A stretch of 64,000 nt of DNA from Escherichia phage ime, in the sequence record MN850576.1; one strand, written 5' to 3'. How positions within the stretch are numbered: position 1 is the first letter of the stretch; every line of letters starts with the position of its first letter. Shown here piece by piece: positions 41,419 to 59,851 of the stretch. The translations under genes and the position numbers were made by a program. Below the pieces are notes generated by a model. That model searched no databases, was not told the origin of the DNA, and worked only from the letters and a program-made list of their open reading frames with translations.

Positions 41419-43491
41419 TTATGAGAAGTCTGGCGGGACAACATCTTCTACATACCCTTTCAGAGCAACCTGCCCCATATGAAGCACGGTAGAATCTCTA
41501 GCGGTAACAGTGATGCTGTCAGACATTACTTGCGGGTATGCCCACACATACTGTTTTACCTCAGGATATCTATACTCTATAGTTGCCATGTTTCCGCAAA
41601 TACATCTCCATAAAAATTCTTGGTAATTCCTGGTTGGGTCGTAACCATATACCGGAGCAAGCTCTTTACTAGGAACGAACCCTGCAAGGTATTGTATTTC
41701 AGACGGTTGCCAACCTAACTTAACGATAGGTATGTTTACAGACTCTTTTGCCTTTTCAATACCTCCCTGCATCACCCAATCGTAGCACTCGGTGCAGAAG
41801 AAATCAAGAGCACCTGCTTCCTTTTTATATTGGTCAGCAAGGTTAAGCTTTTGCGTAAGCTCGGTTTCCATAATGGTTGGGAAAAACAGCAGAGCTGTCA
41901 TCTGAGCTGATGCAGCGTGTGCCTTTATTGCCTTTGAAATAGCCGCAATACGAGCGCCAAGCTTACCACGACAAAATGCTACATACTTATCGTAAACACC
42001 GCCAGTTTTAGGATCGTCAATAGTCCCAATATCTAATGCATACTCGCCTGTCTCATCATAAAACGCCTGTTTTGTAGGGTAATCATAAATACAAGGTCTA
42101 CGAGTATCGGTATTGTACCACCACCACGGTTCACCAACCTGCATAATCACTGGCAGGTTGTTTCTCATAGCGGCTGATGCAAAATTCTTAAATACTGCAG
42201 TAAGGAAATTCATACCCTCTTCAATGGTTGGAGACAGGAGGTAGCTACAAGGTGTATACCCTGTTTTAGCGTAGTTATCGTTCCAGTCTCTTTGGGTCCA
42301 TTCCAACGGGCAGGCATCGCTGAAAAGCTCAAAACTTACAGATTGCATAACGTCGAAGTTATGTCGTTTGGCATTGTACATAAAATCATCATGCCATTTA
42401 TAAGCTGCAGCGTTTAGCGCTCCTGTTCTGTTTATAGACCATTGGGTTCCTGACCATGTGTAGTCATAATAATGACTCATACCAACATAATGGTTTATGG
42501 TTCCGGTATAGCCCAGACGCTTGATATTGTTCAACACCCTTAAAGGAGACACGTTCCACATATCATCATATGCGGTGCAGATCCCAACATCGTGCTCTCT
42601 CACCTGGATATTGTTAAGTTGCATCATTTTCCAGCCTGTGTCTGGCTGAAGCAGATCTAGGCGCAACTCACACTCTACATTTTCCGTTCTCGGGTCTGTG
42701 CTATTACTTACCCAGTCTTTAGGCATAAGCGGTATTAAAATCCTTCTCACCTGCCGAGGATCAACACCCATCATGCTGTTGTTCTGGTCCATCCCGACGC
42801 AGTCCTCAAAATCAATATGAATTTCTGCAACATTCTTATCCTCTGAGATGCTGACAGCATATTGAGCTAAAGGAACATAGATGATTGTGCCATCAACAAG
42901 GTCTACAGTCATAATCATCTTTTCAGGAGTGGAGAAGTTGCTGGCGTTGGTTATTGACATTCTGAACCAGAGCTTGGTGTTTCTCATCTCATAATGATCA
43001 TCAAACCCAATGCCGAAATGGTCATACTTGTCAACTGTTTCCCAAATGCACCCAGCCATACCTCCATATGTTCTTGACACTAAACGGTTAATACAACAGT
43101 TGTTATCTGCAACAATACAGGTACTTTCAGTCTGCTGAGTAGTTGTAACCCAATATCTTGGGTGGAACATTCTCTCCTCAACAGTATCCCAAGATATCCT
43201 GTCGAGATTCTCATCTGAAACTATTGTACATTTCGCCCTTTGTGTTCCAATCATTACCCCTTGGGATTTTGATGAAAACTCCATAAAGAAGCTTCTTGGT
43301 AACCTGTTGGGTAATTTGTCAACAATTTCCACGGGGATCTCAACACTGGTTGCCCCAATTGGGATAGTTACATCGCCCTCAACATGATTATAATCTCTAC
43401 CAGGAACGGCAGTATCCTGAACTGTTCGGTAATGAAACTGTGCAGCCATTGTAGAGTAATCACGGTAAGGTTTAAAAACAGCTGTTGCCAT
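41419..43491 (-). CDS. structural protein with N-terminal Calx-beta-like domain
   Basis: 690 aa; DYNHVEGDVTIPIGATSVEIPVEIVD fits the Calx-beta signature. Confidence 0.45.
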   Translation of the reverse strand: MATAVFKPYRDYSTMAAQFHYRTVQDTAVPGRDYNHVEGDVTIPIGATSVEIPVEIVDKLPNRLPRSFFMEFSSKSQGVMIGTQRAKCTIVSDENLDRISWDTVEERMFHPRYWVTTTQQTESTCIVADNNCCINRLVSRTYGGMAGCIWETVDKYDHFGIGFDDHYEMRNTKLWFRMSITNASNFSTPEKMIMTVDLVDGTIIYVPLAQYAVSISEDKNVAEIHIDFEDCVGMDQNNSMMGVDPRQVRRILIPLMPKDWVSNSTDPRTENVECELRLDLLQPDTGWKMMQLNNIQVREHDVGICTAYDDMWNVSPLRVLNNIKRLGYTGTINHYVGMSHYYDYTWSGTQWSINRTGALNAAAYKWHDDFMYNAKRHNFDVMQSVSFELFSDACPLEWTQRDWNDNYAKTGYTPCSYLLSPTIEEGMNFLTAVFKNFASAAMRNNLPVIMQVGEPWWWYNTDTRRPCIYDYPTKQAFYDETGEYALDIGTIDDPKTGGVYDKYVAFCRGKLGARIAAISKAIKAHAASAQMTALLFFPTIMETELTQKLNLADQYKKEAGALDFFCTECYDWVMQGGIEKAKESVNIPIVKLGWQPSEIQYLAGFVPSKELAPVYGYDPTRNYQEFLWRCICGNMATIEYRYPEVKQYVWAYPQVMSDSITVTARDSTVLHMGQVALKGYVEDVVPPDFS

Positions 43492-45784: not shown

Positions 45785-48700
45785 TTAGTCGTGAGACTCG
45801 TTCCAAGGTCCCTGGAAGCTTGAGTTAGAACGACTAACGATCACAGTGGGACAGGAGATTGTGACACCTGTCACGCTAGACGTTGACCACGGTGTGTAAA
45901 TCTCGACAATAATGTCTATAGTTTGTTCACCTAGACCAGTTATCCCTACCGCACACATGCCGTTGTTGTCGTTTCCGTACTTCTTACCTGCAAGGATTTG
46001 ATGTCCGGCTATCCAAACGTTAAGCTGGGAGCCAGACAATGTCCCGTTTAGTTTAAAGAAGAATGTTACGTTCTTACCTTGTCCTGAAACGTTGTCCACA
46101 TATCTCCACCTCCAACGGCAAACCCTCTGCTGCGAGTTGTATACTGGAGGACAGTCACCGTAGGTTCTGTGTGCAACTATTGCACCTTCGAACTGGTTAG
46201 CACGGATAACAGAAGCTTCTACACGCCCACGGAAGGTACCTCCAGTTGCATCTATGGTACCCCTAAAGTTACCATTATTGGCATAAACATCTCCACGGAA
46301 GGTACCACTGGTGGCGTTAACTGCCCCTGTGAAGTTACCAGAACTGGCGTTGATGTTGCCTTTCACCCACACATCCATAAATTGGGCGTGCCCGTTCTTG
46401 TTAATGTACCAACCGTATTTATGGTACCCGTTGCCATCGTAGTTGTTTGACGAAATTTCTTGTGCGATCTTGGCAGAGGAGATCGTGCCATTCTCTATAA
46501 AAGCGTCTTTCAAGAACGCTTGGTTGTTCTTGATTGCGAAAGCAAGGGTTGCTGTTCCATTTCCAGGGTTGTATACCGCAAAATTGTTTGCACTAACCAT
46601 GAAGTAGGATTGAACTTGTCCTCCAGACCCCTCCATGCCTAGCTGGATACCTGCAACATACTTATTCCCTGCAGAGTCTACCTGAATCTTAGCTCCCCAC
46701 TGAGCATTTATTTTACCCTCAAGTGTTGTTACAGCTTTAGAGGTATTAGATACTGTAGCCCTGAGCTCATCAATATTACCCATTTCGTCAACAATTTCTT
46801 GTTTTGCAGAGGTAAGTTCTTGACGGATCGCTGTGGCTGTATTATTAACAAGATCAACTGTTGTACTATTAGTTTCTTGAATAGATGCTTGCAGATTGGC
46901 AACCTCTTTCTGCACATCATCTTCCAGCTTGGTGATCTTCCCTGTAGCTGCCACCAGATCCTGCTTAATAGCTTCCGTTGTCTTATTTAGCAGATCTGTT
47001 GTTGCCTTGTTGGTTTCTTGAATAGAGGAGTTAAGTTTACTCTCAGTGTTCTTCAACTCTTCCCGCAGAGTACCTTGAGTTGCAGTTATTTGCTCACTCA
47101 ATGCTTGAGTTTTACGATTAACAAGATCAACGGTTGATCTATTTGTTGTCTCGATTAGTGACCCAAGCCTACCAGACTCTGCTGCAAGTTTATCGTCAAA
47201 TGATTGCTGAGCTGCTACCAGCTTACTGTTAAGGGCAGAAATTTCTCCATTAACCCCTGTAAATTTTTCTGTCGTCTCTCTGACAACACCCTCTATTGTA
47301 TCCCCAAGCTCTTCAAAAATGCTAGTAACACGGTCATTGACTGCACCAACATTTTTATCCATTTCCTTGACTGCATTATCAAGATTGGCGGTAAGCTCTT
47401 TATAAGTCTCTGTCTTTTTGAACTCAGCATCAATCTGTGGCATAAGATCTTCTATGGATGTGTAACAGTGGGCTGCACACTCCACAAAAGCAGATGAACC
47501 AAAAGCATTTGTTGTCCTGATATACCAGTAATAAATCTTATCGTTCTGCAGACCTTCAGATGTCCAAGTTGAACCAACACCCATACGAGTGGCTTTTGAA
47601 GTAACGGTTGCATCACTGGTATCTGGCAATCTTGTCATCCCAGATGTCCAAAAGTCGTACTGGGTGCTTACACTAGCCAAGTCTCTGCTGTGCGGGATCA
47701 GGGTAATAGCAAAGTATCCCTGTTTAACTTCTACAGAAACCGGAGCCTCAGGTGCCTGAATGTTAAACTCACAGTATGCTTCTGGAGATACACCACCTTT
47801 ATAAGATGTTGCAACAACAGTGGCTGTGTAGGAACCTTTAGTCAGACCTTCAACACGGACAAACTGCTCAACTGTCTGCGCTGTCCAGACAATCTCTCCG
47901 TTTTTCCTGACCTGCACAATGTTTTGAGCATAAGTCCCAACGTTGTCCCAAGCCAAAACACCGTGAGTTACTTCTCCAGCTTGGAGAACGGAATATCTGA
48001 AGTTTTGCGGTTGAGCTACACCAGATGGAGATATCGGAATATCTACATCGCCAGAATCCGGAAGTTGCCCTGTGGCATCATTCCACTCTTTAGCATCTTG
48101 ACGAAGTTTTACCTTGACACCCCCCTTTTTGGTAAACTCCCATTCAAGAACTCTCATTTCTTGGCCCACTATACCAATACTTGGGAGGTCCATTGTAACG
48201 TAACGACCAGGTTTAAATTTGAAACCTCGCATATTGCAGGTGACTTCAATAATCCTGCCAGCTCTGGCACGTCTTAGGAAGATTGCAGAAACACGCTGAG
48301 CTTGATAAGGACTGGTAACAAAGCGATAGTCTATATCGATTATCTTTCTTTCTCCATCCTTCTCTATCCACTCTGGGACAAACACTGATGGAAAATCTGT
48401 TTCAGAATACCCTTTGGTAGGACTGGTGAATCTGCCAGTTATTGTGTTGGATCTTTTGTCAAATGAGGCTTCCGGATAGATCTTGACCTCACCACAGACA
48501 CAATCCTCACTCAGTGTCATTGTTGCCGGGCCATAGTATGCACCAACCAGCAAACCATACTTACCAGCTACATAGCTGAGATCTGCACCACAAGCTTTCA
48601 GCATTTCTGCCATAATGCTTGCTGGGGCCTCATCCATGTCAAACTCACCGTTAATGGTGTAACGTCGCTCACTGGTTCCGTCAGCGTTTTTTACCGCCTC

Positions 48701-49384
48701 GTCGCATATGTTGGCAGCCTCCTTGAAGGACTCCCAGTTAATGGTTTCGTCAGGACATTTAAGGTACGTTCTTAAATAGTCTAGGATCACCAAGGCCGCG
48801 TTATTGGTATACACCTCTTTACTGATACGAGGATCATAGCATTTTTTACCAACCTTGACAAGTGTAACGTTTGGCAACCCAAAAGGAAACTTGTTAGGGT
48901 CAAACCTGAAGCTGGCACGTAGCCAACTGATCCCTCTACCTATCATGTCGGGTGACCATGATGGGCAGTGTGTACCCATGAAAGGATCAGATGTTTTTCT
49001 GTCGTTATGTAGCTCCCACGATACCAGATCTCCATACGAGGAAATAGGATTACCGTCGATAAGTATATCTTCTATACCTTCCAGAGGGTGATTGGCAAGA
49101 ACAATAGCACAATGGAGGGTTCTGTCGCTATCCTGCTCCAAAAACGCAAGCAATCCGGATGTGCGTGTCTTCCCATACACTACAGAGCAGGGTGCAGCAG
49201 AAGATCTGAGAAGCTTTTGTCTATCTTGCTGACTTCTGTAAGATTTGTTGCCCTCAAAAATCTTATCCAGAGTTCTGGTGGTAACAGTGTTCAGGCTGTC
49301 AGCCAGAGCTGCCTTGGATGCGTTCCAGTCATAACTTGAAGATCTTGCAGAAGCAACGATGTTATCAATCATTGCAATTGGCAT
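45785..49384 (-). CDS. central tail fibre / host specificity protein (lambda J-like)
   Basis: 1199 aa; segments ...APEAPVSVEVKQGYFAITLIPH...YDFW...YYWYIRTTNAFGSSAFVE... and ...KYVAGIQLGMEGSGG...YFMVSANNFAVYNPGNG... resemble the central and C-terminal regions of lambda J as I recall them; long coiled-coil segment. Confidence 0.65.
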   Translation of the reverse strand: MPIAMIDNIVASARSSSYDWNASKAALADSLNTVTTRTLDKIFEGNKSYRSQQDRQKLLRSSAAPCSVVYGKTRTSGLLAFLEQDSDRTLHCAIVLANHPLEGIEDILIDGNPISSYGDLVSWELHNDRKTSDPFMGTHCPSWSPDMIGRGISWLRASFRFDPNKFPFGLPNVTLVKVGKKCYDPRISKEVYTNNAALVILDYLRTYLKCPDETINWESFKEAANICDEAVKNADGTSERRYTINGEFDMDEAPASIMAEMLKACGADLSYVAGKYGLLVGAYYGPATMTLSEDCVCGEVKIYPEASFDKRSNTITGRFTSPTKGYSETDFPSVFVPEWIEKDGERKIIDIDYRFVTSPYQAQRVSAIFLRRARAGRIIEVTCNMRGFKFKPGRYVTMDLPSIGIVGQEMRVLEWEFTKKGGVKVKLRQDAKEWNDATGQLPDSGDVDIPISPSGVAQPQNFRYSVLQAGEVTHGVLAWDNVGTYAQNIVQVRKNGEIVWTAQTVEQFVRVEGLTKGSYTATVVATSYKGGVSPEAYCEFNIQAPEAPVSVEVKQGYFAITLIPHSRDLASVSTQYDFWTSGMTRLPDTSDATVTSKATRMGVGSTWTSEGLQNDKIYYWYIRTTNAFGSSAFVECAAHCYTSIEDLMPQIDAEFKKTETYKELTANLDNAVKEMDKNVGAVNDRVTSIFEELGDTIEGVVRETTEKFTGVNGEISALNSKLVAAQQSFDDKLAAESGRLGSLIETTNRSTVDLVNRKTQALSEQITATQGTLREELKNTESKLNSSIQETNKATTDLLNKTTEAIKQDLVAATGKITKLEDDVQKEVANLQASIQETNSTTVDLVNNTATAIRQELTSAKQEIVDEMGNIDELRATVSNTSKAVTTLEGKINAQWGAKIQVDSAGNKYVAGIQLGMEGSGGQVQSYFMVSANNFAVYNPGNGTATLAFAIKNNQAFLKDAFIENGTISSAKIAQEISSNNYDGNGYHKYGWYINKNGHAQFMDVWVKGNINASSGNFTGAVNATSGTFRGDVYANNGNFRGTIDATGGTFRGRVEASVIRANQFEGAIVAHRTYGDCPPVYNSQQRVCRWRWRYVDNVSGQGKNVTFFFKLNGTLSGSQLNVWIAGHQILAGKKYGNDNNGMCAVGITGLGEQTIDIIVEIYTPWSTSSVTGVTISCPTVIVSRSNSSFQGPWNESHD

Positions 49385-49821
49385 TAATACCTCCAGACAT
49401 CAACAACTATAGAATCTTTCATGTCGAACATAAAGACCCCTTTATCACCTTTCGCCCAAAGCTGGTTGTTCCAGAACACACCAGCGGTGAGCCCGTTCAG
49501 ACCTTCGAAGATAACAATATCGCCACGCTGAACCTGTTTAGGAGTATCTAGTCGAGTCATAAAGAGATCAAAAATAGTAGGCAGGTGTGTGGTTTTGAAA
49601 CGGAGCATGCACCATCTTTTGCTTTCCAACTCTGTTTTATACGTTCCTTCGAAGTTAGAAAGAAAATCTGTTCCGTATTGGGCATCAACACACTTAGCTG
49701 CAAAGGTGCAGCAATCGTGGAATCCCCATTCAAAAGGTATGGTGGCCTCTTCGTCAAACACTTTCCACAATCTTTCTTGCCAATCCACTAAACGAGGGTG
49801 TGTGCTCATTAAACCTCCCAA
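49384..49821 (-). CDS. putative tail assembly protein (Cys/His motif WGFHDCC; possible NlpC/P60-like)
   Basis: 145 aa immediately upstream of the J-like gene, in the position of lambda K. Confidence 0.4.
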   Translation of the reverse strand: MGGLMSTHPRLVDWQERLWKVFDEEATIPFEWGFHDCCTFAAKCVDAQYGTDFLSNFEGTYKTELESKRWCMLRFKTTHLPTIFDLFMTRLDTPKQVQRGDIVIFEGLNGLTAGVFWNNQLWAKGDKGVFMFDMKDSIVVDVWRY

Positions 49822-50375
49822 ATGATCGGGCGGCTCGCCACCTGATCCACATATTTAAAAAATCTGTCATTATCGTTTCTTGAGCTGTGGCTTTCCTCCG
49901 TGTACCGATAAGGAAAACCTCTTAACCAACTGTTGAAGATGGAAGAAATGGATATGGACAAAGCACTATTCTCACCCGTCTGAATAGCCATATCTGTTAT
50001 AAGGCCGTCAAACAAGCCATTGGTTGTAACAGGCAGACCATTCTCCATAGCGGTAATGTACAACGTGGCACGACACCCAGAATACTCCGTCTTCAGCAGA
50101 TCACCCACATACTTAGGATCAAACCCGTTCAATGTCGCTACCACAGATCCGAAGTTGGTGGCATCTTTCTCAGACACAGCAGTTAATGTTGCTGATCCAC
50201 CTATCCCTATAAAATGTTGCCCCTCAATTACTACAACACCAGTGCCTGAGCACACCCTGACAGTTCCTGTGGGTAGCTCCAGCTTTGCAGCAATTAAGAT
50301 CTCAACACCATCAAGCTCCAGCTTTTCAAGAAATAAATTATCTAACGGCGCTCTGATCATCTTAGAAATCCTCAA
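49809..50375 (-). CDS. putative minor tail protein
   Basis: 188 aa; overlapping start/stop within the tip-complex gene string. Confidence 0.4.
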   Translation of the reverse strand: MRISKMIRAPLDNLFLEKLELDGVEILIAAKLELPTGTVRVCSGTGVVVIEGQHFIGIGGSATLTAVSEKDATNFGSVVATLNGFDPKYVGDLLKTEYSGCRATLYITAMENGLPVTTNGLFDGLITDMAIQTGENSALSISISSIFNSWLRGFPYRYTEESHSSRNDNDRFFKYVDQVASRPIIWEV

Positions 50376-50952
50376 AGAAGTTGATAACTATATTATCACC
50401 TTTTTGCATAGCATCGACTTTTTGCTTAATTTTATAAATATCTCTGATATGAAACCTACCCTTCGGGGATTGAGTTATTATCTTCATAGTGTCCCCTGCG
50501 GCAATAGGTTTTCTAAGTCTTGGAGATATGCCTATAACAGCAGACCCAACACCATCGCTACGCACTGGAGCTGTTACCACTTTCAATTCATCATTGACAG
50601 ATATTTTATCCCCAGCTCTGGCTATGTCTCTGTTCGGCTCCCACCCAACCGTCTTCAAAAAATCGTCGTTACCAGTAGGCCCAAGGGCGATTGGCTCATT
50701 AGCTGTTACTGAGTGACCGTAAGTTTTAATGAGAAAGATGTTCCCATCTTTATACACCTGATCAACAAAGCTCTTAAGCTCTAGCAACTGTGACTCGCTG
50801 ATATTGGAAACCGTCAAAGTGCCTTTCCAGTTAGGTGTGGCATAGGTTACTTTTTGCGTTTTACCTGTAAACGGACTTTTAAACGTAACAATATCTGCCA
50901 GCAGCTCCAATCTAATATCTGGAAGGTATCTAGGCCTTTCCCATAAAAACAT
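50362..50952 (-). CDS. putative minor tail protein
   Basis: 196 aa; in the position analogous to lambda L/M. Confidence 0.4.
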   Translation of the reverse strand: MFLWERPRYLPDIRLELLADIVTFKSPFTGKTQKVTYATPNWKGTLTVSNISESQLLELKSFVDQVYKDGNIFLIKTYGHSVTANEPIALGPTGNDDFLKTVGWEPNRDIARAGDKISVNDELKVVTAPVRSDGVGSAVIGISPRLRKPIAAGDTMKIITQSPKGRFHIRDIYKIKQKVDAMQKGDNIVINFFEDF

Positions 50953-51016
50953 TGTGCCTCCAGGTTAAACAATCATGATAGTTATTTTACCAGATTTTGA
51001 GTTAATACGCAATACA

Positions 51017-51044
51017 AACAAAAAGCCCCCGCCGAAGCGAGGGC
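51017..51044 (-). terminator. rho-independent terminator (minus strand)
   Basis: Minus-strand GCCCUCGC-UUCG-GCGGGGGC followed by UUUUUGUUUG, downstream of the 110-aa gene. Confidence 0.5.
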
Positions 51045-51050
51045 AATACT

Positions 51051-51383
51051 TTAAAGTGCTTCCAAGGTGGATACTGATGGGTCGAACATGTTCAACCTTA
51101 TCGAATCTACAACTTTTCCGCTTTTAGAGATGATGTTTTCTGCATCCTCGTCCAGAGCCAGAACGTTAACATAAAACAATTCACTTTTCTCGCAAACTGG
51201 GTAGACAACCATGTTGCCAAATTCATCTTCGGCCTCATAAGTGTCTCCAGTCTCTGTGTAAATGAACCCGACAACCTCTACAAGAAGGGTGTTTTGCAAC
51301 ACCTCATTCTCGTAAAAGCCGATTTCGTCCATGAAACCGTTAAAATCCTCCCTGTCAGTAAATCCAAGGGTAAAAGTATTCAT
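51051..51383 (-). CDS. hypothetical tail-associated protein
   Basis: 110-aa acidic ORF. Confidence 0.45.
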   Translation of the reverse strand: MNTFTLGFTDREDFNGFMDEIGFYENEVLQNTLLVEVVGFIYTETGDTYEAEDEFGNMVVYPVCEKSELFYVNVLALDEDAENIISKSGKVVDSIRLNMFDPSVSTLEAL

Positions 51384-54300
51384 TATTCAACACTCTCCAT
51401 CATAAGCTGGGTGTCTGTCAGTGCAGAGTTCCAAACTCTTATGTCCTTAATATGACCAAATAAGTGTCTTTCACCTGTCGCCGTTTGACCACCAATGCGG
51501 ATGAAAGCACCTCCTGCCAGGAATTCCCAAGAAGACTGCGTTTCTGAGCTCACCAGTCCGTTAGCAAAAGAGCAGGTTTTACCGTCATCTTTTATCCTGA
51601 ACCCAACTTTCAATTTACGAACTTTAGCCATCTCGTAAACACGTCTGTTTGACCCTCCAATATCACAGTATGGATAACCATCATCCGCAATATTTGTTGC
51701 AGAGCCAAATCCCATGATAAATGCAGCACCGGATTGATGACCCTCTGTATCGATAACCCTAGGAGCTGCGTTAGGAGCTTTACCCCAACCTCTCCAGTTG
51801 GCATCCACCGTAGCAGCGATAGTGAATGGTCTAGGCGCTAAGTTATCCGTCATTGGGAATTTACAAAGATCTGCCGCCCTGGTTACAGGTGAAGATCCTG
51901 TAGGGATAAACGAGGACTCACAAGATCCTAACTCAAACTGAGGTATTGCAACGTCAACCCAATCCCCTACGGCATGTTGAGAACTCTCCGGCGGGGCAAT
52001 CTGAAACTGGCACCCGATCTTTCTGTCAGAGGCCACTGCCTCAAACGTAGCAACAACCCTTGTCCAAGCAGGTCCGGCTGTTTGCCATCTCTCAGCTTTT
52101 ACTTTAATTCTCCCCGCTGCACCCCCTGTTGTTTTCACTTCAAGTGTTGACAGGTTAACATAAGCATCACCTTGATATGTTGTGGTGGATCCGTCGTACA
52201 TGTCGAATCTTATACGCAGTCTCTGGTGAGCTTTACCGCCTCTTGCAATGATAGACCCAGTACAGAATTTCTCATCACCTGTTACATCGGCACCTCTGGT
52301 GGCTGGAACTACAGCCAAGTTTAACGCCGTTGTTTCTACACCGGACGTGGTGTTTACTGTAAATCTTGCACCTTTTGTGCCGTTGGTGTTTGTTACAGTG
52401 CTACCGACAGTAATCGCCTGCTGTGCACCCCATTTACTCGGGTCTTCACTGTTAAGCATTAGGTTTGTCCTTTGCCCTTCAATAAGCAGACCATCTCTTT
52501 CAAACCGAGGCTGATCGTTCTGAGCAGTAACCATCACACCGCGTTTAGAAAAGTATGTTGCTGTAGAAGGTCTGGAAAATACCATCTCTCCCTCACCAAG
52601 TGCAGGTTTTAAGTTGGAGGTCAAAGGTAACCAAAGATCAGGCATAACTGGGGCTGTTGTGCTTTCAGGGAAGCTTGTCCTCTTCCAAGGACTCCAAGCC
52701 ATTCCACTACCAGTGTTATTATAATACCTTTCCCATGTTCCACCAAGGTACATCTTATAGATCTGAATACAGCCCGTGCCTTCGTTAGCAGAGTTTCTAA
52801 GAACAATCAGCGTACCAGCCATCTGCTGTCCAGGCGGGTAATGTCTTTCAGCTGTAGCATTAGCATTCGCCTCTTGATGGTAGATACCTTCACGATCTGC
52901 TTTATAATCGTTAAGGTCGCTATTCCCCAGTCCTTGACCACGGTGCTGAATAACCTTGTTCCACGCTCTGTGATTTCCCTGCTCTATGGAACGAGTATAC
53001 AGCTGATCTAAGCGACCTGCTATCTGGAAAGCATAGTTCCCAGAGAATGCCACAGACAACCCGCCAACAACCATCGAACCTTCAGGTCCGTTGACGTTAC
53101 CAGCCATTATTTTAGAAGGGTTGTTATTCCCGAACTGGTTGTTCCAGTCTGCACCTGTGTGGCATACAAAACCACCAGGGGCTGAGAAAGTGCCATCTTT
53201 GTTGAAGTTGTAGAATCTGTGAGCAGAACCTACAACATCACGAACAATAACTTGACCAGCCTCTGGAGTAGATCTGAACTCTGCCTGGCCTTTGAGACCA
53301 GCACCATTACCGCATTTAGAGGTAAACGTACCGTTAGTCAGATCCTCTGTCCCATCTGATGCACACTGGAAGCCTGCATTAGAGAATAACGCCTTTCTAG
53401 GACTGCCGTAGCACAAATAGTCAAGACCGTCTGCCCATAACTCGACTTTTGGCATATTCATTTTGCTCATCACAGCATAGCGTTCAGCAGTACCTATATA
53501 GTGCCACTGTGTGCCGCCACCAGTGTAGAACCCTGAAGTCCCTTTGAAGTCAACAATAGGTCTGGTGTTGGTATTATTATCTCCAAGAACAGCAAGATTC
53601 AAATCTGCTGACTGGAGAGGTGCAACGAACTTAACACCGTCCTGATTGTCTGTTACAGAGCCAACCTGGTAATCTTGCTCCCTGGTAAACACCTCGACAA
53701 CATTTCTACTTGCGTATATGCTGACAGGGAAAGCACGCGCCTCCGCATAGAAAGCAACATATTCTTGTTTACCCCTTGTTGGAGCAACCATCCCAAGAAT
53801 TGCTTTTTCATTCTGGTAGAAATTTACTACCCCGTAGAAAGAGTCTCCTCTGTCTGTCCAACCACCAGTTCTATAGTGACACTGTAAGGTCGCACAGTTC
53901 ATAGGGTCACCGCCGGATGACGATCTGGTAACTATGGTAATATCAGTGCCAGTTGCTGGAGCATAGTACGGATCTGTTCTAACGATAATTGGGTAGTATT
54001 TCCCATCTTCCATCCCTGCGGTTCTTGGCAGTGTTAAGAAGTCTTTTACACCTGCTGCTATAGGAACTTTGAACAGATTCTGAGCATCTGCTAAAGTTGT
54101 AGCCCCAGTGCCACCTGCGGCTTGAGGTAGAGGTTCCCACTTGGCCTTCCGGTTGTTATAAACACCCCATTCCAGAGCGCCGTTACCGGATTCGTCCATC
54201 CCACCATCCCAGATAACCATCTTGGCGGCTTTCTTGGACCCCCAGAAGCCTCTTTCTGCTCCTGAACTACGAATCCATTCTCCAAGACCCCAGTTTGTCA

Positions 54301-55822
54301 GCTGACCAGTAAGATCCCCAACCTGCATATATTTAGGGCAGTCTAATACGCCGTCTTCGCGGAAACCTAAATATTTATGAGTTTCAGATCCTTTTGCACC
54401 TTTGTGCAGGTGGATTGTCAGCCAAGCCTTATTGTCGTTTCTTACCTCAGAGTAGATCCTATATCCATGCTCAAGAACACCATCGGTGTTATATTTATCT
54501 CCATGGAGAATACCTGAGGCCGATTTAACATCTCCAGAGTATTGAGCTAAGTAAAGGTGCCCGAAGGCTGGCGAGTTGTTTTTACCAAGGCCAATATGAG
54601 ATCTAAAGGTATCATCGTTACGAGGTCTGACCATCGGCTGCCATGCAGTCCACTGATTTGTGTTGGCCTGATAGGTTCTCAAATACCAAACATCTACGTT
54701 AGAGAATGGATAGTATTCCTGACGACAACCTGTACCTCCGTTAGCATTGTTCTGCCAAACAATCAAGTGACCAGCACCAGAACCTGCAGGGTAACCATTT
54801 GCCTCAGTTGCATAAGCAGTCATTGGCTGGTAGTATACACCATCCTGATTACCAGTCAAGTTATTGATATTGAAATTTGGCTCAAGGGCTGCACGTTGCT
54901 TATAGAAAGCACCGATATTGATACGGACTCCAGCGGCATCTCTAGCCCCTGTGCCGCCTTGCTCTATAGCAAGAGGTTGCCACGAAGCTGTTTGTTGGTT
55001 CCACATACCCCAACGGCCTGTTGCATCAAGCTGCAAGTACCCTGCCGTATTTAAATCATCTCCAGCACGGATAACTGTTCTTGTTGGGTTGTTTGCCTCT
55101 AGGCGTTTAAATTCATCACGAAGTGCTATTCTTTTCGTTGTTGCTACACCGTTGGTTACTGCAATGGTGTACATGGCTCCGGTGGTAGCGCCACGGAAAA
55201 TACCATCAACAGTTGTAGTATCACGACGAGACACCACACCGTTCAGAAATTTTTCACCAGCTGCTACAGAAGGGTAGTTGGTAGTTCTTCCCTCTTCAAT
55301 AACTGCAGGGCCAACAAAGTTATCAAGGTGAATAACATCGCCTACAGTGTGCACTGTACCAAAATCTACACGCTGTGCAAGTGCTTTGGCATCGTTAGCT
55401 GTCTGAACAGTAACATCCATTACATCCTGGACAGACTGCCCTTCGGCTGTCATGATCATAGATGCGCCAATGGTAGATTCCAGCTCCTCCCTTAAGGACG
55501 GGTCAGTATATACCATCCATGCAGCGTCAGTAATCCCACCATCGGAGTACGGTGAAGACAGTGCAGGAACAGTGTGTGGAAATTCGCCTTTCCAACGCAG
55601 GTAGAGGTCTTCCTCTTCGAAGTAGGCAAAATCCATTGGGCCGTTTAACTTACCACCTTCCTTAAAGGAGATTACATGAGAAACAGTCCCATCAACATGG
55701 ACAACATCGCCAATTTTTACACGACGGGTCAGGTCTGGTTGTTGAACAACCAGGTAATCATCCTCTGTCACTGAGGTAGTGGCAGGAAGAGATTCAATTC
55801 TGACAACTTTAATATCAGCCAT
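51383..55822 (-). CDS. giant tail fibre / tailspike-like protein with C-terminal ConA/LamG-like domain
   Basis: 1479 aa; N-terminal about 110 aa paralogous to ORF 58457..59125; internal repeats containing W.PL...GGTGA and GTGC.Q.Y; C-terminal ...GERHLFGHIKDIRVWNSALTDTQL resembles LamG-type lectin domains. Confidence 0.55.
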   Translation of the reverse strand: MADIKVVRIESLPATTSVTEDDYLVVQQPDLTRRVKIGDVVHVDGTVSHVISFKEGGKLNGPMDFAYFEEEDLYLRWKGEFPHTVPALSSPYSDGGITDAAWMVYTDPSLREELESTIGASMIMTAEGQSVQDVMDVTVQTANDAKALAQRVDFGTVHTVGDVIHLDNFVGPAVIEEGRTTNYPSVAAGEKFLNGVVSRRDTTTVDGIFRGATTGAMYTIAVTNGVATTKRIALRDEFKRLEANNPTRTVIRAGDDLNTAGYLQLDATGRWGMWNQQTASWQPLAIEQGGTGARDAAGVRINIGAFYKQRAALEPNFNINNLTGNQDGVYYQPMTAYATEANGYPAGSGAGHLIVWQNNANGGTGCRQEYYPFSNVDVWYLRTYQANTNQWTAWQPMVRPRNDDTFRSHIGLGKNNSPAFGHLYLAQYSGDVKSASGILHGDKYNTDGVLEHGYRIYSEVRNDNKAWLTIHLHKGAKGSETHKYLGFREDGVLDCPKYMQVGDLTGQLTNWGLGEWIRSSGAERGFWGSKKAAKMVIWDGGMDESGNGALEWGVYNNRKAKWEPLPQAAGGTGATTLADAQNLFKVPIAAGVKDFLTLPRTAGMEDGKYYPIIVRTDPYYAPATGTDITIVTRSSSGGDPMNCATLQCHYRTGGWTDRGDSFYGVVNFYQNEKAILGMVAPTRGKQEYVAFYAEARAFPVSIYASRNVVEVFTREQDYQVGSVTDNQDGVKFVAPLQSADLNLAVLGDNNTNTRPIVDFKGTSGFYTGGGTQWHYIGTAERYAVMSKMNMPKVELWADGLDYLCYGSPRKALFSNAGFQCASDGTEDLTNGTFTSKCGNGAGLKGQAEFRSTPEAGQVIVRDVVGSAHRFYNFNKDGTFSAPGGFVCHTGADWNNQFGNNNPSKIMAGNVNGPEGSMVVGGLSVAFSGNYAFQIAGRLDQLYTRSIEQGNHRAWNKVIQHRGQGLGNSDLNDYKADREGIYHQEANANATAERHYPPGQQMAGTLIVLRNSANEGTGCIQIYKMYLGGTWERYYNNTGSGMAWSPWKRTSFPESTTAPVMPDLWLPLTSNLKPALGEGEMVFSRPSTATYFSKRGVMVTAQNDQPRFERDGLLIEGQRTNLMLNSEDPSKWGAQQAITVGSTVTNTNGTKGARFTVNTTSGVETTALNLAVVPATRGADVTGDEKFCTGSIIARGGKAHQRLRIRFDMYDGSTTTYQGDAYVNLSTLEVKTTGGAAGRIKVKAERWQTAGPAWTRVVATFEAVASDRKIGCQFQIAPPESSQHAVGDWVDVAIPQFELGSCESSFIPTGSSPVTRAADLCKFPMTDNLAPRPFTIAATVDANWRGWGKAPNAAPRVIDTEGHQSGAAFIMGFGSATNIADDGYPYCDIGGSNRRVYEMAKVRKLKVGFRIKDDGKTCSFANGLVSSETQSSWEFLAGGAFIRIGGQTATGERHLFGHIKDIRVWNSALTDTQLMMESVE

Positions 55823-55857
55823 TCTTTCTCCTGAAAGGGGGCAAACAGCCCCCTATG

Positions 55858-58455
55858 TTAAAGGTACAATCCACGGTATTGAGCATAGAGGCCCAGACCG
55901 CGAAGGATTTCGCCAGAGTGATAGCCTACCGGATCAGAAACTGCCCAGCAGCCGTTTAAAACATTATCCCCATTAATGAAGTGGTGCTTTTGCAGTAGCT
56001 TCACACAGGCCTCTACAACAATATCTATTTGAGGTATTGTCTCTGAATACCCGCACAGACCTAGCCAGCAGCAACCTGCAAGCCATTCACCTACCACCCA
56101 CATCCTGTCCCCTCTGTCTTGATAAGAATATCCCCCAGAGGTGTTAAAGTCTGTAGGCAGATTTCCTGAATGAGATGACTGGAATCTGTTGAGGAACCAT
56201 GCCCATTTCTGGCAGAACAGGAACAGTCTTTCATCAACAGGTTCTTTATGTTTCTTGAGCTCATATATTGTGCGGCACGCAGCAACAAAAGATCTTGACT
56301 GGAGCTTAGAGTTATCTACCATCTCCCACCAACCAGTCAACCCTTCATTACCTCTCTGCCATACATAACGTGAGGCAACTGGACCCTCTGTCTTAAATGT
56401 ATTATTATACCAGACTTGAGCGTCATACAGAAAGCCTATTGTATTTGACAATCTATGGCGATCTATGTTTTCTGCACCCATGCAGTAGACTGCTGGGTAT
56501 TGCATGCCTGGGTAGGGCCAATTTGGCCTTTCCTCTAAGAGATAGTTTTCCTTATCTATCACCTTTCCGGCAGGGAACACACCTGGTGTGTGCCTGTATG
56601 CACCTTGCTTGTAGTTTCTAACATAGCAATCACCAACCTTAGCGGTTGATTCTGTCTTGCTTGCCATCCATACGCTAAACCAGATTAGATAAGCATCCCT
56701 ATCTGCAATATAGAATTGCGGCAGTGTGTTGACGCAATATAGATCAAACAAGCCATTACCTATCTGCCTGTCGCTTAGGGTGAAATCTACAGAGGTGAGT
56801 CCCTTAGGATTAGCAAAGAAAGGTTTAATCTCTTCTTCAGTGTGATGAGGTTGTGTCGGATCTAGTTTGAAATCTCCTAGAGTAAGAGTTTCTGTTATCC
56901 ATTGTCCATTAGTGGCATATAGATCAGCATACCATAACCACCTGTCTTTGTCAAGAAATTTGACCCTTACCATCTCATCATCTGATCGATAAGTTACTGA
57001 GTTTAAAGAAATCTCTCTTCCAAAATTGAAAGTTACTTTGCCTCTTGCTATATTACAACGGGTGAAGTTGTCAGAGTGGTTGTAAATGTCAGTAGCGTAC
57101 TGCATACTAACACTGGCACCACCGCTCACGGCAATATTTTCCTCTTTAGGTAAAAGGTACGGATTACCGTCTTTACCAACTACCTCTACGAAATCAGTAA
57201 CCTTGGCAACTATTTCTGTTACCTCTGCCCCTCCAAAAGGAACCCCTATCCTGTACTGTTTTTTGTTATTGTTGCCATCATTAAGGATGAAATGTGGCTG
57301 GAACAGAACCCCTTCTCCTCCGAAATTCATAACAATTTCAGCATCTCTGCCTATTTTGTATGTAGTCCCTTTTTGAATTATTTCGCAAGGCTGGCGTGCG
57401 TTCATTCTAAAGTTGATATACCCGTCACTGTCTCTGCTCATGACAGGAACTGTTCCTGCAACAAGACAAGTACCGTCTGTAAACGGTGCCTTAATCAACG
57501 TGGTCTTTCTAAACAGCTTGTCGTAGGCGTTTATATCACTGAAATTAAGCAACTTGTTGTAAGACTGTTTAAATGCGGTGTAATACTTTTCCTCACCTGT
57601 CAAGGTGTAGAGTTGATAACAAGCGTCACACCACATTTCTTCCCCGTCCAACTCTGGGGCCTGATTATCTGCAACCACGTTTATAGGATTTACAATTACA
57701 GGGGATCCAGCAGGTATCACCGATCCGCCCTGCTCTTGAGGTAATCTTACACAATAGGTCACCTTGTGGCTGCCTGTAACACCCTTATCTTGTAATTGGA
57801 TTGTGCCGAACTCTACAGACGTATGACCACTGTCGGCTATGCTACCGTTAGCCCAATAGCGGTTACCATCCCATGCTATGTACCACTCAACCCACCAACT
57901 TAATCCGGATGTTGTCCAATCTGGGTTAGCATCTGTGCCACCGTAAACATCAGAGTCTACAGTGTTTCTTCCTAACACACCGTTATACGCTTGGAATGCC
58001 TTGTCCAGGTATTCCCCCCATGTCGGAGATCCAGCTGGGATTTTTCCTCTACCGTTGGTAAAAGACACCACCACATCTTTAAACCCACCGTGTGATGGAA
58101 CCCCATCTGTGGATAGAGGGTAGTGGGACAATCTTTGCATTTTACTTTCTACGGCATATGCACCCAGAAGATGACTATTGTAAGCTTCCCAAGCATCTTT
58201 TGCCCTATCCAGATAGAAATCGCTTTTCGATGCCCTATATGCTTCAATGTATCCCAGAATCAACACAGCTTGGGACTCATGCATTGCCCAATCATTATTT
58301 ATCTTATTACCTGCCCACCCTGCAGCTATAAGACCATCAGGGTTTACTAGCTTATTTTGTGTAGGGGTGTTGGTAATACCTGTGTTGTTATCGAGGCACT
58401 TCCTGTGCCCCTCAATCATCTGAAATACGTTATCAATGTTGTGTTGAATACGCAT
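55858..58455 (-). CDS. putative polysaccharide-degrading tailspike (alpha/alpha-toroid glycoside hydrolase-like)
   Basis: 865 aa; aromatic-rich W/Y repeats at both ends suggest an (alpha/alpha)6-type hydrolase fold with a beta-rich insertion; AGGAG RBS inside the end of the upstream gene. Confidence 0.4.
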   Translation of the reverse strand: MRIQHNIDNVFQMIEGHRKCLDNNTGITNTPTQNKLVNPDGLIAAGWAGNKINNDWAMHESQAVLILGYIEAYRASKSDFYLDRAKDAWEAYNSHLLGAYAVESKMQRLSHYPLSTDGVPSHGGFKDVVVSFTNGRGKIPAGSPTWGEYLDKAFQAYNGVLGRNTVDSDVYGGTDANPDWTTSGLSWWVEWYIAWDGNRYWANGSIADSGHTSVEFGTIQLQDKGVTGSHKVTYCVRLPQEQGGSVIPAGSPVIVNPINVVADNQAPELDGEEMWCDACYQLYTLTGEEKYYTAFKQSYNKLLNFSDINAYDKLFRKTTLIKAPFTDGTCLVAGTVPVMSRDSDGYINFRMNARQPCEIIQKGTTYKIGRDAEIVMNFGGEGVLFQPHFILNDGNNNKKQYRIGVPFGGAEVTEIVAKVTDFVEVVGKDGNPYLLPKEENIAVSGGASVSMQYATDIYNHSDNFTRCNIARGKVTFNFGREISLNSVTYRSDDEMVRVKFLDKDRWLWYADLYATNGQWITETLTLGDFKLDPTQPHHTEEEIKPFFANPKGLTSVDFTLSDRQIGNGLFDLYCVNTLPQFYIADRDAYLIWFSVWMASKTESTAKVGDCYVRNYKQGAYRHTPGVFPAGKVIDKENYLLEERPNWPYPGMQYPAVYCMGAENIDRHRLSNTIGFLYDAQVWYNNTFKTEGPVASRYVWQRGNEGLTGWWEMVDNSKLQSRSFVAACRTIYELKKHKEPVDERLFLFCQKWAWFLNRFQSSHSGNLPTDFNTSGGYSYQDRGDRMWVVGEWLAGCCWLGLCGYSETIPQIDIVVEACVKLLQKHHFINGDNVLNGCWAVSDPVGYHSGEILRGLGLYAQYRGLYL

Positions 58456-58456
58456 C

Positions 58457-59125
58457 TTAGATAGCTCCTGCGATAATCAGTGCCCCGTACCAAGTTAACC
58501 CGTTGTCGTAGGTTTCCAACTTGAAAATGTCTGTTGCACCAGCTGTAAATGTTAGGATAGGATCTCTTCCGTAGGACCATTTAACATTACCAGGCCAATA
58601 GACTTTGTTGCCGCCAGAGGTCTGAGTAATGCATACGGTTATAGTTCTCGCCACCCCTTCAAGACCTTCTGTTTGATTTTCAAAAGAGATTGTGGTATTT
58701 GAAGTTAGTCGAACCTTAAAGGTATCCGCAACTTCAAGATCCATATCAAGCTGACCACCGATAGATCCGTAATCAACTATTCTGCCAGAAGAAGTTGCAG
58801 CAAGCTCACCAAAAACAGACCAGGCATTTGCAGACACACCCCCAGCACCCTCTACAGTGGAGTCTGGGAGGATTATTTTAGGATAATCCCCGTTCCACGT
58901 GTAGTAGCGCTTAGTTTCTGGATCATAAGCAAAGTCCTTCTTGCTCTTAAGATAACCACCCTCTGTGAAATAGACTATTTTAGTAATGCTGAGATCGTTG
59001 ACAACATCATCAATCTTAGCCTTTCTTGTCCCATCAGTCTGGTTGACAACCAAGAAGTCATCACTCAGGACTGTTTCTGCATCTTCAAGATCTGGAATTG
59101 GTATTGTAGGATAAGCTACAGCCAT
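58457..59125 (-). CDS. fibre/spike anchor-domain protein (N-terminal domain paralogous to 1479-aa fibre)
   Basis: 222 aa; shares LP...DD[FY]LVV.Q.D.TR..KI.DVV...FAY...Y.W.G[DE][YF]P with the N-terminus of the 1479-aa protein. Confidence 0.5.
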   Translation of the reverse strand: MAVAYPTIPIPDLEDAETVLSDDFLVVNQTDGTRKAKIDDVVNDLSITKIVYFTEGGYLKSKKDFAYDPETKRYYTWNGDYPKIILPDSTVEGAGGVSANAWSVFGELAATSSGRIVDYGSIGGQLDMDLEVADTFKVRLTSNTTISFENQTEGLEGVARTITVCITQTSGGNKVYWPGNVKWSYGRDPILTFTAGATDIFKLETYDNGLTWYGALIIAGAI

Positions 59126-59134
59126 GATTTCTCC

Positions 59135-59851
59135 TTAGTTAACATCGATAGCACGACCAGACTGGTTGGCAATAGCCTCATCATTGGAGGTAGCAATAAC
59201 ACCAGAGTATTCGCGCTCATCTGGAGCAAGCGTCCAGGTATTGCGGTTAATGGTTTGTTCTGCCTCAGTCATCAGCAGATCTTTATCCTGAGTCAACAGA
59301 GAGCCTACAGGGATCGGGTTTTCCATCTCAGGACCAGCATACTGGTTCCACCATGTGGCATCTCCGGTTCTAGGCAATCTGAAGTTGATCAGGTAGTACA
59401 GTTTATTAGCCCACTTAATCCAACCTTCATCATCACAGAGAGAGGTTGTCCCAGAATCAGGCTGTGGGTAGGTAAACTGATCAAGACCTACAAAAGCCAG
59501 CCTTACAATCTCGTTCTCTTTGGTAACAACCTCAAAGAACGCTTGGTATGTTCTCGATCTTCGATCCATGGTAGACTGGAAGTTTACGATGTTTAGCACA
59601 TCCGGCTCTTGTCTTGCCACTTCCATAATCTTGTTATCAAGAACAGTCTTCATGACCTTCTTACTGAGAAAGTCCATATAAGGGAAGCCAAACAACTCGT
59701 CAAAGTACCAGCTCCCCTTCCACGTATTAAACCTCATCCACAAGCGCTGGCGTAGACTTACCTGGTTTGAATCTATCAACTCAAGACCTTTGTCTATCGC
59801 CAAATCGCCTGTCTGTGGGTCCATCAATATATCACTATAAAGCGTAGCCAT
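59135..59851 (-). CDS. putative baseplate wedge protein (gp25/gpW-like)
   Basis: 238 aa; N-terminal ...DPQTGDLAIDKGLELIDSNQVSLRQRLWMRFNTWKGSWYFDELFGFPY resembles the gp25/gpW signature; C-terminal extension. Confidence 0.4.
   Translation of the reverse strand: MATLYSDILMDPQTGDLAIDKGLELIDSNQVSLRQRLWMRFNTWKGSWYFDELFGFPYMDFLSKKVMKTVLDNKIMEVARQEPDVLNIVNFQSTMDRRSRTYQAFFEVVTKENEIVRLAFVGLDQFTYPQPDSGTTSLCDDEGWIKWANKLYYLINFRLPRTGDATWWNQYAGPEMENPIPVGSLLTQDKDLLMTEAEQTINRNTWTLAPDEREYSGVIATSNDEAIANQSGRAIDVN

Follow-up and report, generated by a model that had tools for sequence, protein, structure and literature searches.

Phages resembling rV5 and phi92 are valued for their broad host range, and the assignment of their fibre genes to targets is incomplete (PMC8594841; PMC13450770). 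Among these genes is a small one followed directly by a large one, described as gp43 and gp42 in rV5 and as gp140 and gp141 in phi92. Both rV5 proteins have been seen in virions by mass spectrometry (PMC3606486). In phi92, gp140 was reported to resemble a spike in a cryo-electron microscopy (cryo-EM) study (PMC13450770), and PMC5380687, citing Schwarzer 2012, already lists gp141 as a 'glycosidase'. Both genes are thus known, and the glycosidase label of the larger one dates back to the phi92 genome paper. Here we studied the corresponding pair in a 64,000-nucleotide stretch of Escherichia phage ime (sequence record MN850576.1), hereafter the window. It encodes proteins of 222 and 865 amino acids (aa) and is flanked by the baseplate hub and spike genes on one side and by a run of lateral fibre genes on the other, the nearest of which is included below.

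58457..59125, minus strand: small fibre or adaptor gene (222 aa), an open reading frame (ORF) with an ATG start; orthologue of rV5 gp43 (also 222 aa) and bas54_0025.
55858..58455, minus strand: six-hairpin glycosidase-like gene (865 aa), an ORF with an ATG start; orthologue of rV5 gp42 and bas54_0026, homologue of phi92 gp141.
51383..55822, minus strand: lateral fibre gene (1479 aa), an ORF; its attachment module, residues 7-105, is encoded at 55508-55804, and its counterpart in Bas54 is bas54_0027.

The three ORFs, described in a first-pass annotation made from the letters of the window, were confirmed by the ORF listing. The 3.3-kb stretch carrying the pair shares 99.8% identity with Escherichia phages nomo, naswa, vB_Eco_Alma and CarlMeissner (Bas48), and it matched 119 phage records, nearly all of them Vequintavirus (rV5-like myoviruses). 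Given this identity to published phages and the presence of gp42 and gp43 in rV5 virions, the two ORFs are real genes. We regard the pair, with moderate confidence, as a coupled, virion-borne host-recognition module consisting of an adaptor and a glycan-binding, probably hydrolytic globular head.

The gene order of the pair in other phages provided evidence for such a module. By tblastn, 524 phage records carry the large protein and 535 the small one, and the two sets are spread over hosts in much the same way. Beyond the Vequintavirinae only residues ~110-222 of the small protein are conserved, with full-length matches also in Seunavirus and its relatives. Gene order was checked in 36 loci encoding a large-family protein: 25 from IMG/VR, nine from GenBank (the window, Bas54, phi92, a Rosemountvirus, a Vibrio phage, a Seunavirus, an SPN3US-like jumbo phage, a Grimontviridae phage and the N4-like podovirus Philippe), one SU10-like podovirus contig and one Burkholderia prophage. 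In all 36, including 25 of 25 from IMG/VR, the gene directly upstream of the large gene ended in the C-terminal domain (C-domain) of the small protein. This pairing holds in myoviruses and podoviruses alike, with intergenic gaps ranging from small overlaps up to a few tens of bases. The upstream proteins, 156-473 aa long, have mutually unrelated N-terminal parts, among them Tail_spike_N, a SPRY domain, and Ala/Gln/Ser-rich stretches which are apparently of low complexity and may form coiled coil. In the Burkholderia prophage the C-domain closes a 473-aa SPRY protein. A variable N-terminus joined to a constant C-domain would be expected of an anchor that differs between lineages and offers the large protein an unchanging docking domain. 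The position of the C-domain directly upstream of the large gene in every locus thus supports an adaptor-plus-enzyme module.

Two further arrangements were recorded. The metagenomic protein P0065 (293 aa) consists of the large-family N-terminus over its first ~195 residues followed by the small-family C-domain; this chimera may have arisen by natural recombination, by truncation or as an artefact of assembly. In Salmonella phage SE-SHZ-R (Rosemountvirus, a 53-kb myovirus; locus L005, 6725-10305), the pair lies ~5 kb downstream of the terminase gene with several unannotated genes in between, whereas the Vequintavirus pair adjoins the hub and spike genes.

The junction of the two genes in the window is tight. 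Read on the minus strand, the TAA stop of the small gene (58459-58457) is followed by a single base (58456) and the ATG of the large gene (58455-58453). The ribosome-binding site (RBS) of the large gene lies within the end of the small one:

58465..58469, minus strand: AGGAG RBS of the 865-aa gene, read from the sequence, inside the 3' end of the 222-aa gene, 9 nt ahead of the ATG.

Both the 1-nt gap and the placement of the RBS inside the anchor gene, as first annotated, were thus confirmed directly. The homologous junctions of phi92 and SE-SHZ-R overlap as TAATG and that of Vibrio phage D495 overlaps as ATGA. A programmed frameshift joining the two ORFs was considered and dropped with no search made for a slippery site, as these homologous junctions are ordinary overlapping stop and start codons. 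With junctions overlapping or 1 nt apart in these phages, the 222-aa and 865-aa genes are translationally coupled.

Next, we turned to the 865-aa protein. It is 99.1% identical to bas54_0026 and, over its whole length, 35% identical to phi92 gp141, and it matches PHROG 2871. Searched alone, the sequence gave no Pfam, NCBIfam or PDB sequence match. Indexed searches returned only 4-6 proteins each, whilst an exhaustive HMMER search recovered 92 cluster representatives, mostly of 900-1700 aa. An alignment of 31 homologues taken from these 92 was used as input to AlphaFold2, which gave a confident model (predicted local distance difference test score, pLDDT, 87.3; predicted template modelling score, pTM, 0.82). 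In the model, six helical hairpins (helices 2-23, 59-96, 269-305, 663-687, 716-761, 785-824 and 844-863) form a barrel, interrupted by a beta domain at residues 100-268 and by beta-sandwich domains at residues ~307-640. The parts map to the window as follows.

58159..58455, minus strand: barrel segment 1 (residues 1-99), helices 2-23, 59-76 and 79-96, with near-invariant E60 and Q62.
57652..58158, minus strand: beta-rich insertion 1 (residues 100-268), model strands 101-254.
57538..57651, minus strand: barrel segment 2 (residues 269-306), helices 269-286 and 289-305, with near-invariant D270 and E272.
56536..57537, minus strand: beta-sandwich insertion 2 (residues ~307-640), model strands 329-613; PHROG 23426 matches residues 482-580.
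55861..56535, minus strand: barrel segment 3 (residues 641-865), helices 663-687, 716-735, 742-761, 785-800, 809-824 and 844-863.

A profile search of the PDB matched only six-hairpin enzymes, with E-values (E) of 8e-4 for the full-length profile and 4e-5 to 1e-4 for the barrel alone. These matches are short and run via the repeated hairpin motif (E 4e-5 to 1e-3 overall); the hairpin motif of barrel segment 1 matches glycoside hydrolase (GH) family 76, cellobiose 2-epimerase and GH88. When the whole model was searched with Foldseek, no match extended over its full length and no solved phage protein was among the matches; the best structural matches are nearly all enzymes. The toroid fold guessed in the first-pass annotation is thus borne out by structure prediction and Foldseek, the model being an (alpha/alpha)6 barrel and not a purely structural beta-fibre. 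Its argument from a high tryptophan and tyrosine content fared less well, as the rise is slight (W 3.1% and Y 5.5%; neighbouring fibres have 1.8-2.8% and 3.6-5.7%), and the hoped-for placement in a CAZy family did not follow.

Polar residues are conserved on the loop face of the barrel across the 31 sequences, which are 22-56% identical. E60, Q62, D270, E272, R721 and E849 are found where the first helix of successive hairpins begins, at its N-terminal end or immediately ahead of it; segment 3 contributes R721 and E849 and, in a loop, the conserved W699 and R701. In six-hairpin glycosidases the active site is found at the face where the long loops meet. Because the conserved polar residues are located on this face, they form a candidate active site. 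Catalytic signatures differ between such families, with a Glu/Asp pair in GH8 and adjacent Asp-Asp in GH76. In the model, E60, D270, E272, R721 and E849 are candidate catalytic residues. Fold and residue conservation together suggest that the 865-aa protein is probably catalytic.

The protein has no parallel beta-helix and no C-terminal chaperone domain and so is not of the trimeric beta-helix tailspike type. It also has no anchor domain, starting directly with barrel helix 2-23 and giving no Tail_spike_N match. The earlier proposal of delivery through a separate adaptor holds up in this respect, since the large protein lacks its own anchor and has a constant upstream partner in the C-domain; the capsule or exopolysaccharide (EPS) depolymerase role attached to that proposal does not, as discussed below. 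Our literature search on six-hairpin phage proteins, Rosemountvirus and S144 found no characterised homologue or published assay. In the homologue of Stenotrophomonas phage Philippe (Schitoviridae, an N4-like podovirus; locus L010, 4787-8038), the beta-sandwich segment, at profile positions 464-625, is tandemly duplicated.

The 222-aa protein has the same sequence as bas54_0025 (100% identity), and its PHROG match is 7760, 'tail fiber protein' (E 8e-120). It divides into two parts.

58811..59125, minus strand: attachment module (residues 1-105), a ~45-residue leader followed by Tail_spike_N (PF18668, residues 51-105).
58460..58783, minus strand: all-beta C-terminal domain (residues ~115-222), the proposed docking domain.

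As had been noticed from the letters, the N-terminal attachment domain is common to the 222-aa protein and the 1479-aa fibre. Residues 8-105 of the former align with residues 7-105 of the latter by BLASTP (38% identity over 99 residues, E 2e-18), and both proteins pass Pfam PF18668 Tail_spike_N, scoring 41.0 and 40.4 bits, respectively, against a curated cut-off of 25. PDB sequence matches of the 222-aa protein were to the N-terminal parts of CBA120 TSP1/3/4 and other tailspikes, and phi92 gp140 and gp143 have their first ~40 residues in common with the 1479-aa protein. The second part corresponds to phi92 gp140 (157 aa), which aligns to residues 109-222 with 42% identity. A small-family profile gave no match among PDB sequences. 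The 222-aa protein would be a short fibre or adaptor, probably trimeric. Its BASEL label, 'sialidase domain protein', finds no support in its domains: the only Pfam match is the non-catalytic Tail_spike_N, and the remainder is a ~110-residue beta domain.

Fitness data for the orthologous genes of Bas54 were available from the HIDEN-SEQ preprint, a transposon mutagenesis study whose text counts bas54_0026 among the insertion-tolerant fibre genes. Its supplement lists bas54_0025 as 'Essential' (7 of 47 TA sites) and both bas54_0026 (94 of 189) and bas54_0027 as 'Intermediate'. One site-level table has zero insertions in bas54_0025, whilst insertions in bas54_0026 begin near codon 10. After passage on K-12 BW25113, mean counts per site were 0.0 for bas54_0025, 3.1 for 0026 and 0.2 for 0027, compared with roughly 120-800 for most non-essential Bas54 genes in that table. 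The three genes reached 17.8, 52.1 and 16.6, respectively, on a uropathogenic isolate. By contrast, bas54_0028-0031 had counts of 38-86 on K-12 and ~0 on the isolate. These values come from a preprint supplement in which a sheet label (CFE303) and the command line (311) disagree. As their counts move together between K-12 and the clinical strain, the small, large and long-fibre genes behave as one host-dependent block, important on capsule-free K-12 but required much less on the uropathogenic isolate. Over the wider run bas54_0024-0031 (window ~45785-59851), bas54_0024-0027 were depleted on K-12 and enriched on the isolate, and bas54_0028-0031 showed the reverse. The apparent dispensability of bas54_0024 on the isolate is odd, given its homology to gp139, the sheath initiator of phi92.

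We also compared the pair with the remaining fibre genes of the window, one of which encodes an NCTSP-type protein.

41419..43491, minus strand: 690-aa fibre protein with NCTSP_N and TIM-barrel_NCTSP (Pfam E 4e-80); homologue of phi92 gp142.

The 690-aa protein is 42% identical to phi92 gp142 and 27% identical to N4 gp64, with a short match to gp65. Recent work names the NCTSP-type fibre protein as the one that binds NGR, the N4 glycan receptor (bioRxiv 10.64898/2026.04.02.716166; PMC8669472), and by similarity the 690-aa ORF is a candidate NGR-binding 'deacetylase' fibre. The 865-aa protein had also been considered as a 'sugar deacetylase' fibre akin to N4 Gp64; this was rejected, as BLAST links N4 gp64 and gp65 to the 690-aa ORF and Pfam agrees. 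The legend of figure S5C in Maffei 2021 places a deacetylase fibre 'around position 8,000', which by arithmetic is the 865-aa gene and conflicts with the BLAST result. In the large family itself, two proteins (P0020 and P0025) are fused at their C-terminus to NCTSP_N and TIM-barrel_NCTSP, whilst P0037 ends in Big_2 and P0016 in a Gly-rich domain. In phi92, the gp140, gp141 and gp142 genes are adjacent. This suggests, speculatively, that the barrel protein can serve as an appendage body with a distal receptor binder, and perhaps that both act on the same glycan.

The genes downstream of the pair complete a probable transcription unit.

51051-51383, minus strand: 110-aa ORF, PHROG 1361 (unknown function), with a 1-nt overlap with the stop codon of the 1479-aa gene.
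51025..51044, minus strand: terminator-like hairpin from the terminator scan (8 pairs, 7 of them G-C, and a T run).

A promoter and terminator scan found no signal above the shuffle background between the genes of this unit or inside the pair. The hairpin probably ends a unit made up of the 222-aa, 865-aa, 1479-aa and 110-aa genes, and the 110-aa ORF may be a fibre chaperone or assembly factor closing the operon. Two other observations concern the setting of the locus. Between 18 and 23 GenBank records labelled 'Campylobacter phage' (MG0656xx, host C. jejuni) carry genes 99-100% identical to those of the window, a host label that looks doubtful. GC skew over window positions 1-64000 is mostly negative and turns positive at ~24-30 kb, suggesting a block of genes on the opposite strand.

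Taken together, these results are best explained by a coupled adaptor and glycan-binding head. Residues 1-105 of the 222-aa protein would serve as the attachment module, and the 865-aa protein would dock on its C-terminal domain. Once docked, it would bind, and probably hydrolyse, a conserved non-capsular glycan of the host surface early in adsorption, as part of one fibre set with the 1479-aa fibre. Several findings weigh against this explanation. Docking of the large protein on the small C-domain is proposed from gene order, the model of the 222-aa protein is poor (pLDDT 45, from a shallow alignment), and in Roseobacter phage CRP-4 the small C-domain is followed by an unrelated 661-aa protein. 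The 2026 cryo-EM study of phi92 left gp141 unplaced and did not fit gp140 into fibre II (PMC13450770). The small gene is far less tolerant of insertions than the large one: it is essential whilst the large gene is only 'Intermediate' on K-12, so the small protein is more than a carrier for the large one and might anchor something else or build the baseplate periphery. Depletion of the large gene on K-12 could partly be a polar effect on the downstream fibre gene. As to catalysis, six-hairpin folds are also seen in epimerases, isomerases and terpene cyclases, and family and profile matches allowed no CAZy family to be assigned. It is conceivable, if doubtful, that the 222-aa and 865-aa proteins are independent virion parts, the former an essential baseplate socket or short fibre and the latter attached elsewhere, with their constant gene order reflecting co-inheritance or assembly order instead of direct binding. 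Against this stand adjacency and coupling in 36 of 36 loci across unrelated baseplates and tails, and the combination of a small protein whose N-terminus changes by lineage whilst its C-domain stays constant with a large protein that has no anchor of its own. A less remote alternative, which we nonetheless hold to be unlikely, keeps the module and drops the enzyme: the barrel would be a non-catalytic lectin, scaffold or structural appendage body serving reversible attachment or carrying receptor binders. The varied C-terminal receptor-binding modules of P0020, P0025, P0037 and P0016 are the behaviour expected of a shaft or body, and both the large conserved beta-sandwich domains and the missing CAZy assignment fit it. 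It accounts poorly for best structural matches that are nearly all enzymes and for near-invariant acidic and basic residues at the six-hairpin active-site position, retained down to 22% identity.

The capsule or EPS depolymerase proposed in the first-pass annotation would clear a variable capsule and set host range, as do the K1, K5 and Klebsiella tailspikes. A glycosidase-like fold and virion association agree with such a role, and rV5- and phi92-like phages do infect encapsulated strains (PMC8594841). We consider it very improbable all the same. In 118 of 119 Vequintavirus records the 865-aa gene is present at full length with at least 90% identity, in contrast to the true variable fibre genes, which differ; the 1479-aa fibre gene, for example, is at least 80% covered in only 34 of 121 records. 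Moreover, the gene is depleted for insertions and matters most on capsule-free K-12, less on the uropathogenic isolate, and its product is not a trimeric beta-helix. Because the gene is near-invariant next to a variable 1479-aa fibre and important on a host that has no capsule, a capsule depolymerase is not favoured. The BASEL authors likewise noted that most of the locus is conserved and probably aimed at conserved structures (PMC8594841).

A more specific extension of the adaptor-and-head explanation concerns NGR. Bacteria possess deacetylase-plus-hydrolase pairs for exopolysaccharides, as in PgaB and PelA, and a phage counterpart could exist here. The 865-aa protein would then found an undescribed GH family, a mobile 'tip enzyme' cassette, which in NGR-dependent coliphages processes NGR, controlled by cyclic di-GMP, whilst the NCTSP 'deacetylase-like' fibre (41419-43491) binds the same glycan. 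The P0020 and P0025 fusions, the gene adjacency in phi92 and the fitness cost of disruption on K-12 speak for this proposal. N4, by contrast, uses NGR without the module, many carriers infect other genera and the K-12 effect may be polar, and we put the proposal forward only tentatively, as an improbable one.

The module is among the most conserved parts of the fibre apparatus and occurs in more than 500 sequenced phages with unrelated tail types. The present work contributes the specific architecture of a six-hairpin barrel split by insertions, the strict order of small and large gene as a cassette in a prophage and in phages of unrelated types, natural fusions with NCTSP modules, and a tie to published fitness data. 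Should the 865-aa protein actively hydrolyse a conserved envelope glycan, it would represent a new enzyme family and give phage engineering a portable tool delivered by an adaptor. Should it prove inactive, an enzyme fold has been reused as a fibre body. Either outcome helps to assign the unplaced fibre density in rV5- and phi92-like phages.

Compared with known systems, the pair does not differ in kind from phi92 gp140/gp141, rV5 gp43/gp42, bas48_0024/0025 and bas54_0025/0026, which are true orthologues or homologues. phi92 deviates in that its small protein (157 aa) is without Tail_spike_N and the gp142 gene follows directly. Six-hairpin (alpha/alpha)6 enzymes (GH8, GH76, GH88, GH105, GH48 and the N-acylglucosamine and cellobiose 2-epimerases) are only 6-14% identical to the 865-aa protein, whose barrel is interrupted between hairpins by two large beta insertions. 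These relatives are secreted or periplasmic enzymes, whereas the 865-aa family is a virion component.

Other virion-borne enzymes are delivered differently. In the branched complexes of CBA120 TSP1-4, G7C gp63.1/gp66 and the K1-5/SP6-like adaptors, the enzymes are trimeric beta-helix spikes with their own anchors, whilst the 865-aa protein is a globular barrel without an anchor, and the docking domain proposed for it is the distinct, conserved C-terminal beta domain of the 222-aa protein, for which the PDB gave no sequence match. P22 gp9, the K1F endosialidase and phi92 gp143 are likewise virion-borne, glycan-directed and early in adsorption. Unlike these classical tailspikes, the 865-aa protein lacks the beta-helix and the C-terminal chaperone domain, and its sequence is conserved instead of serotype-variable.

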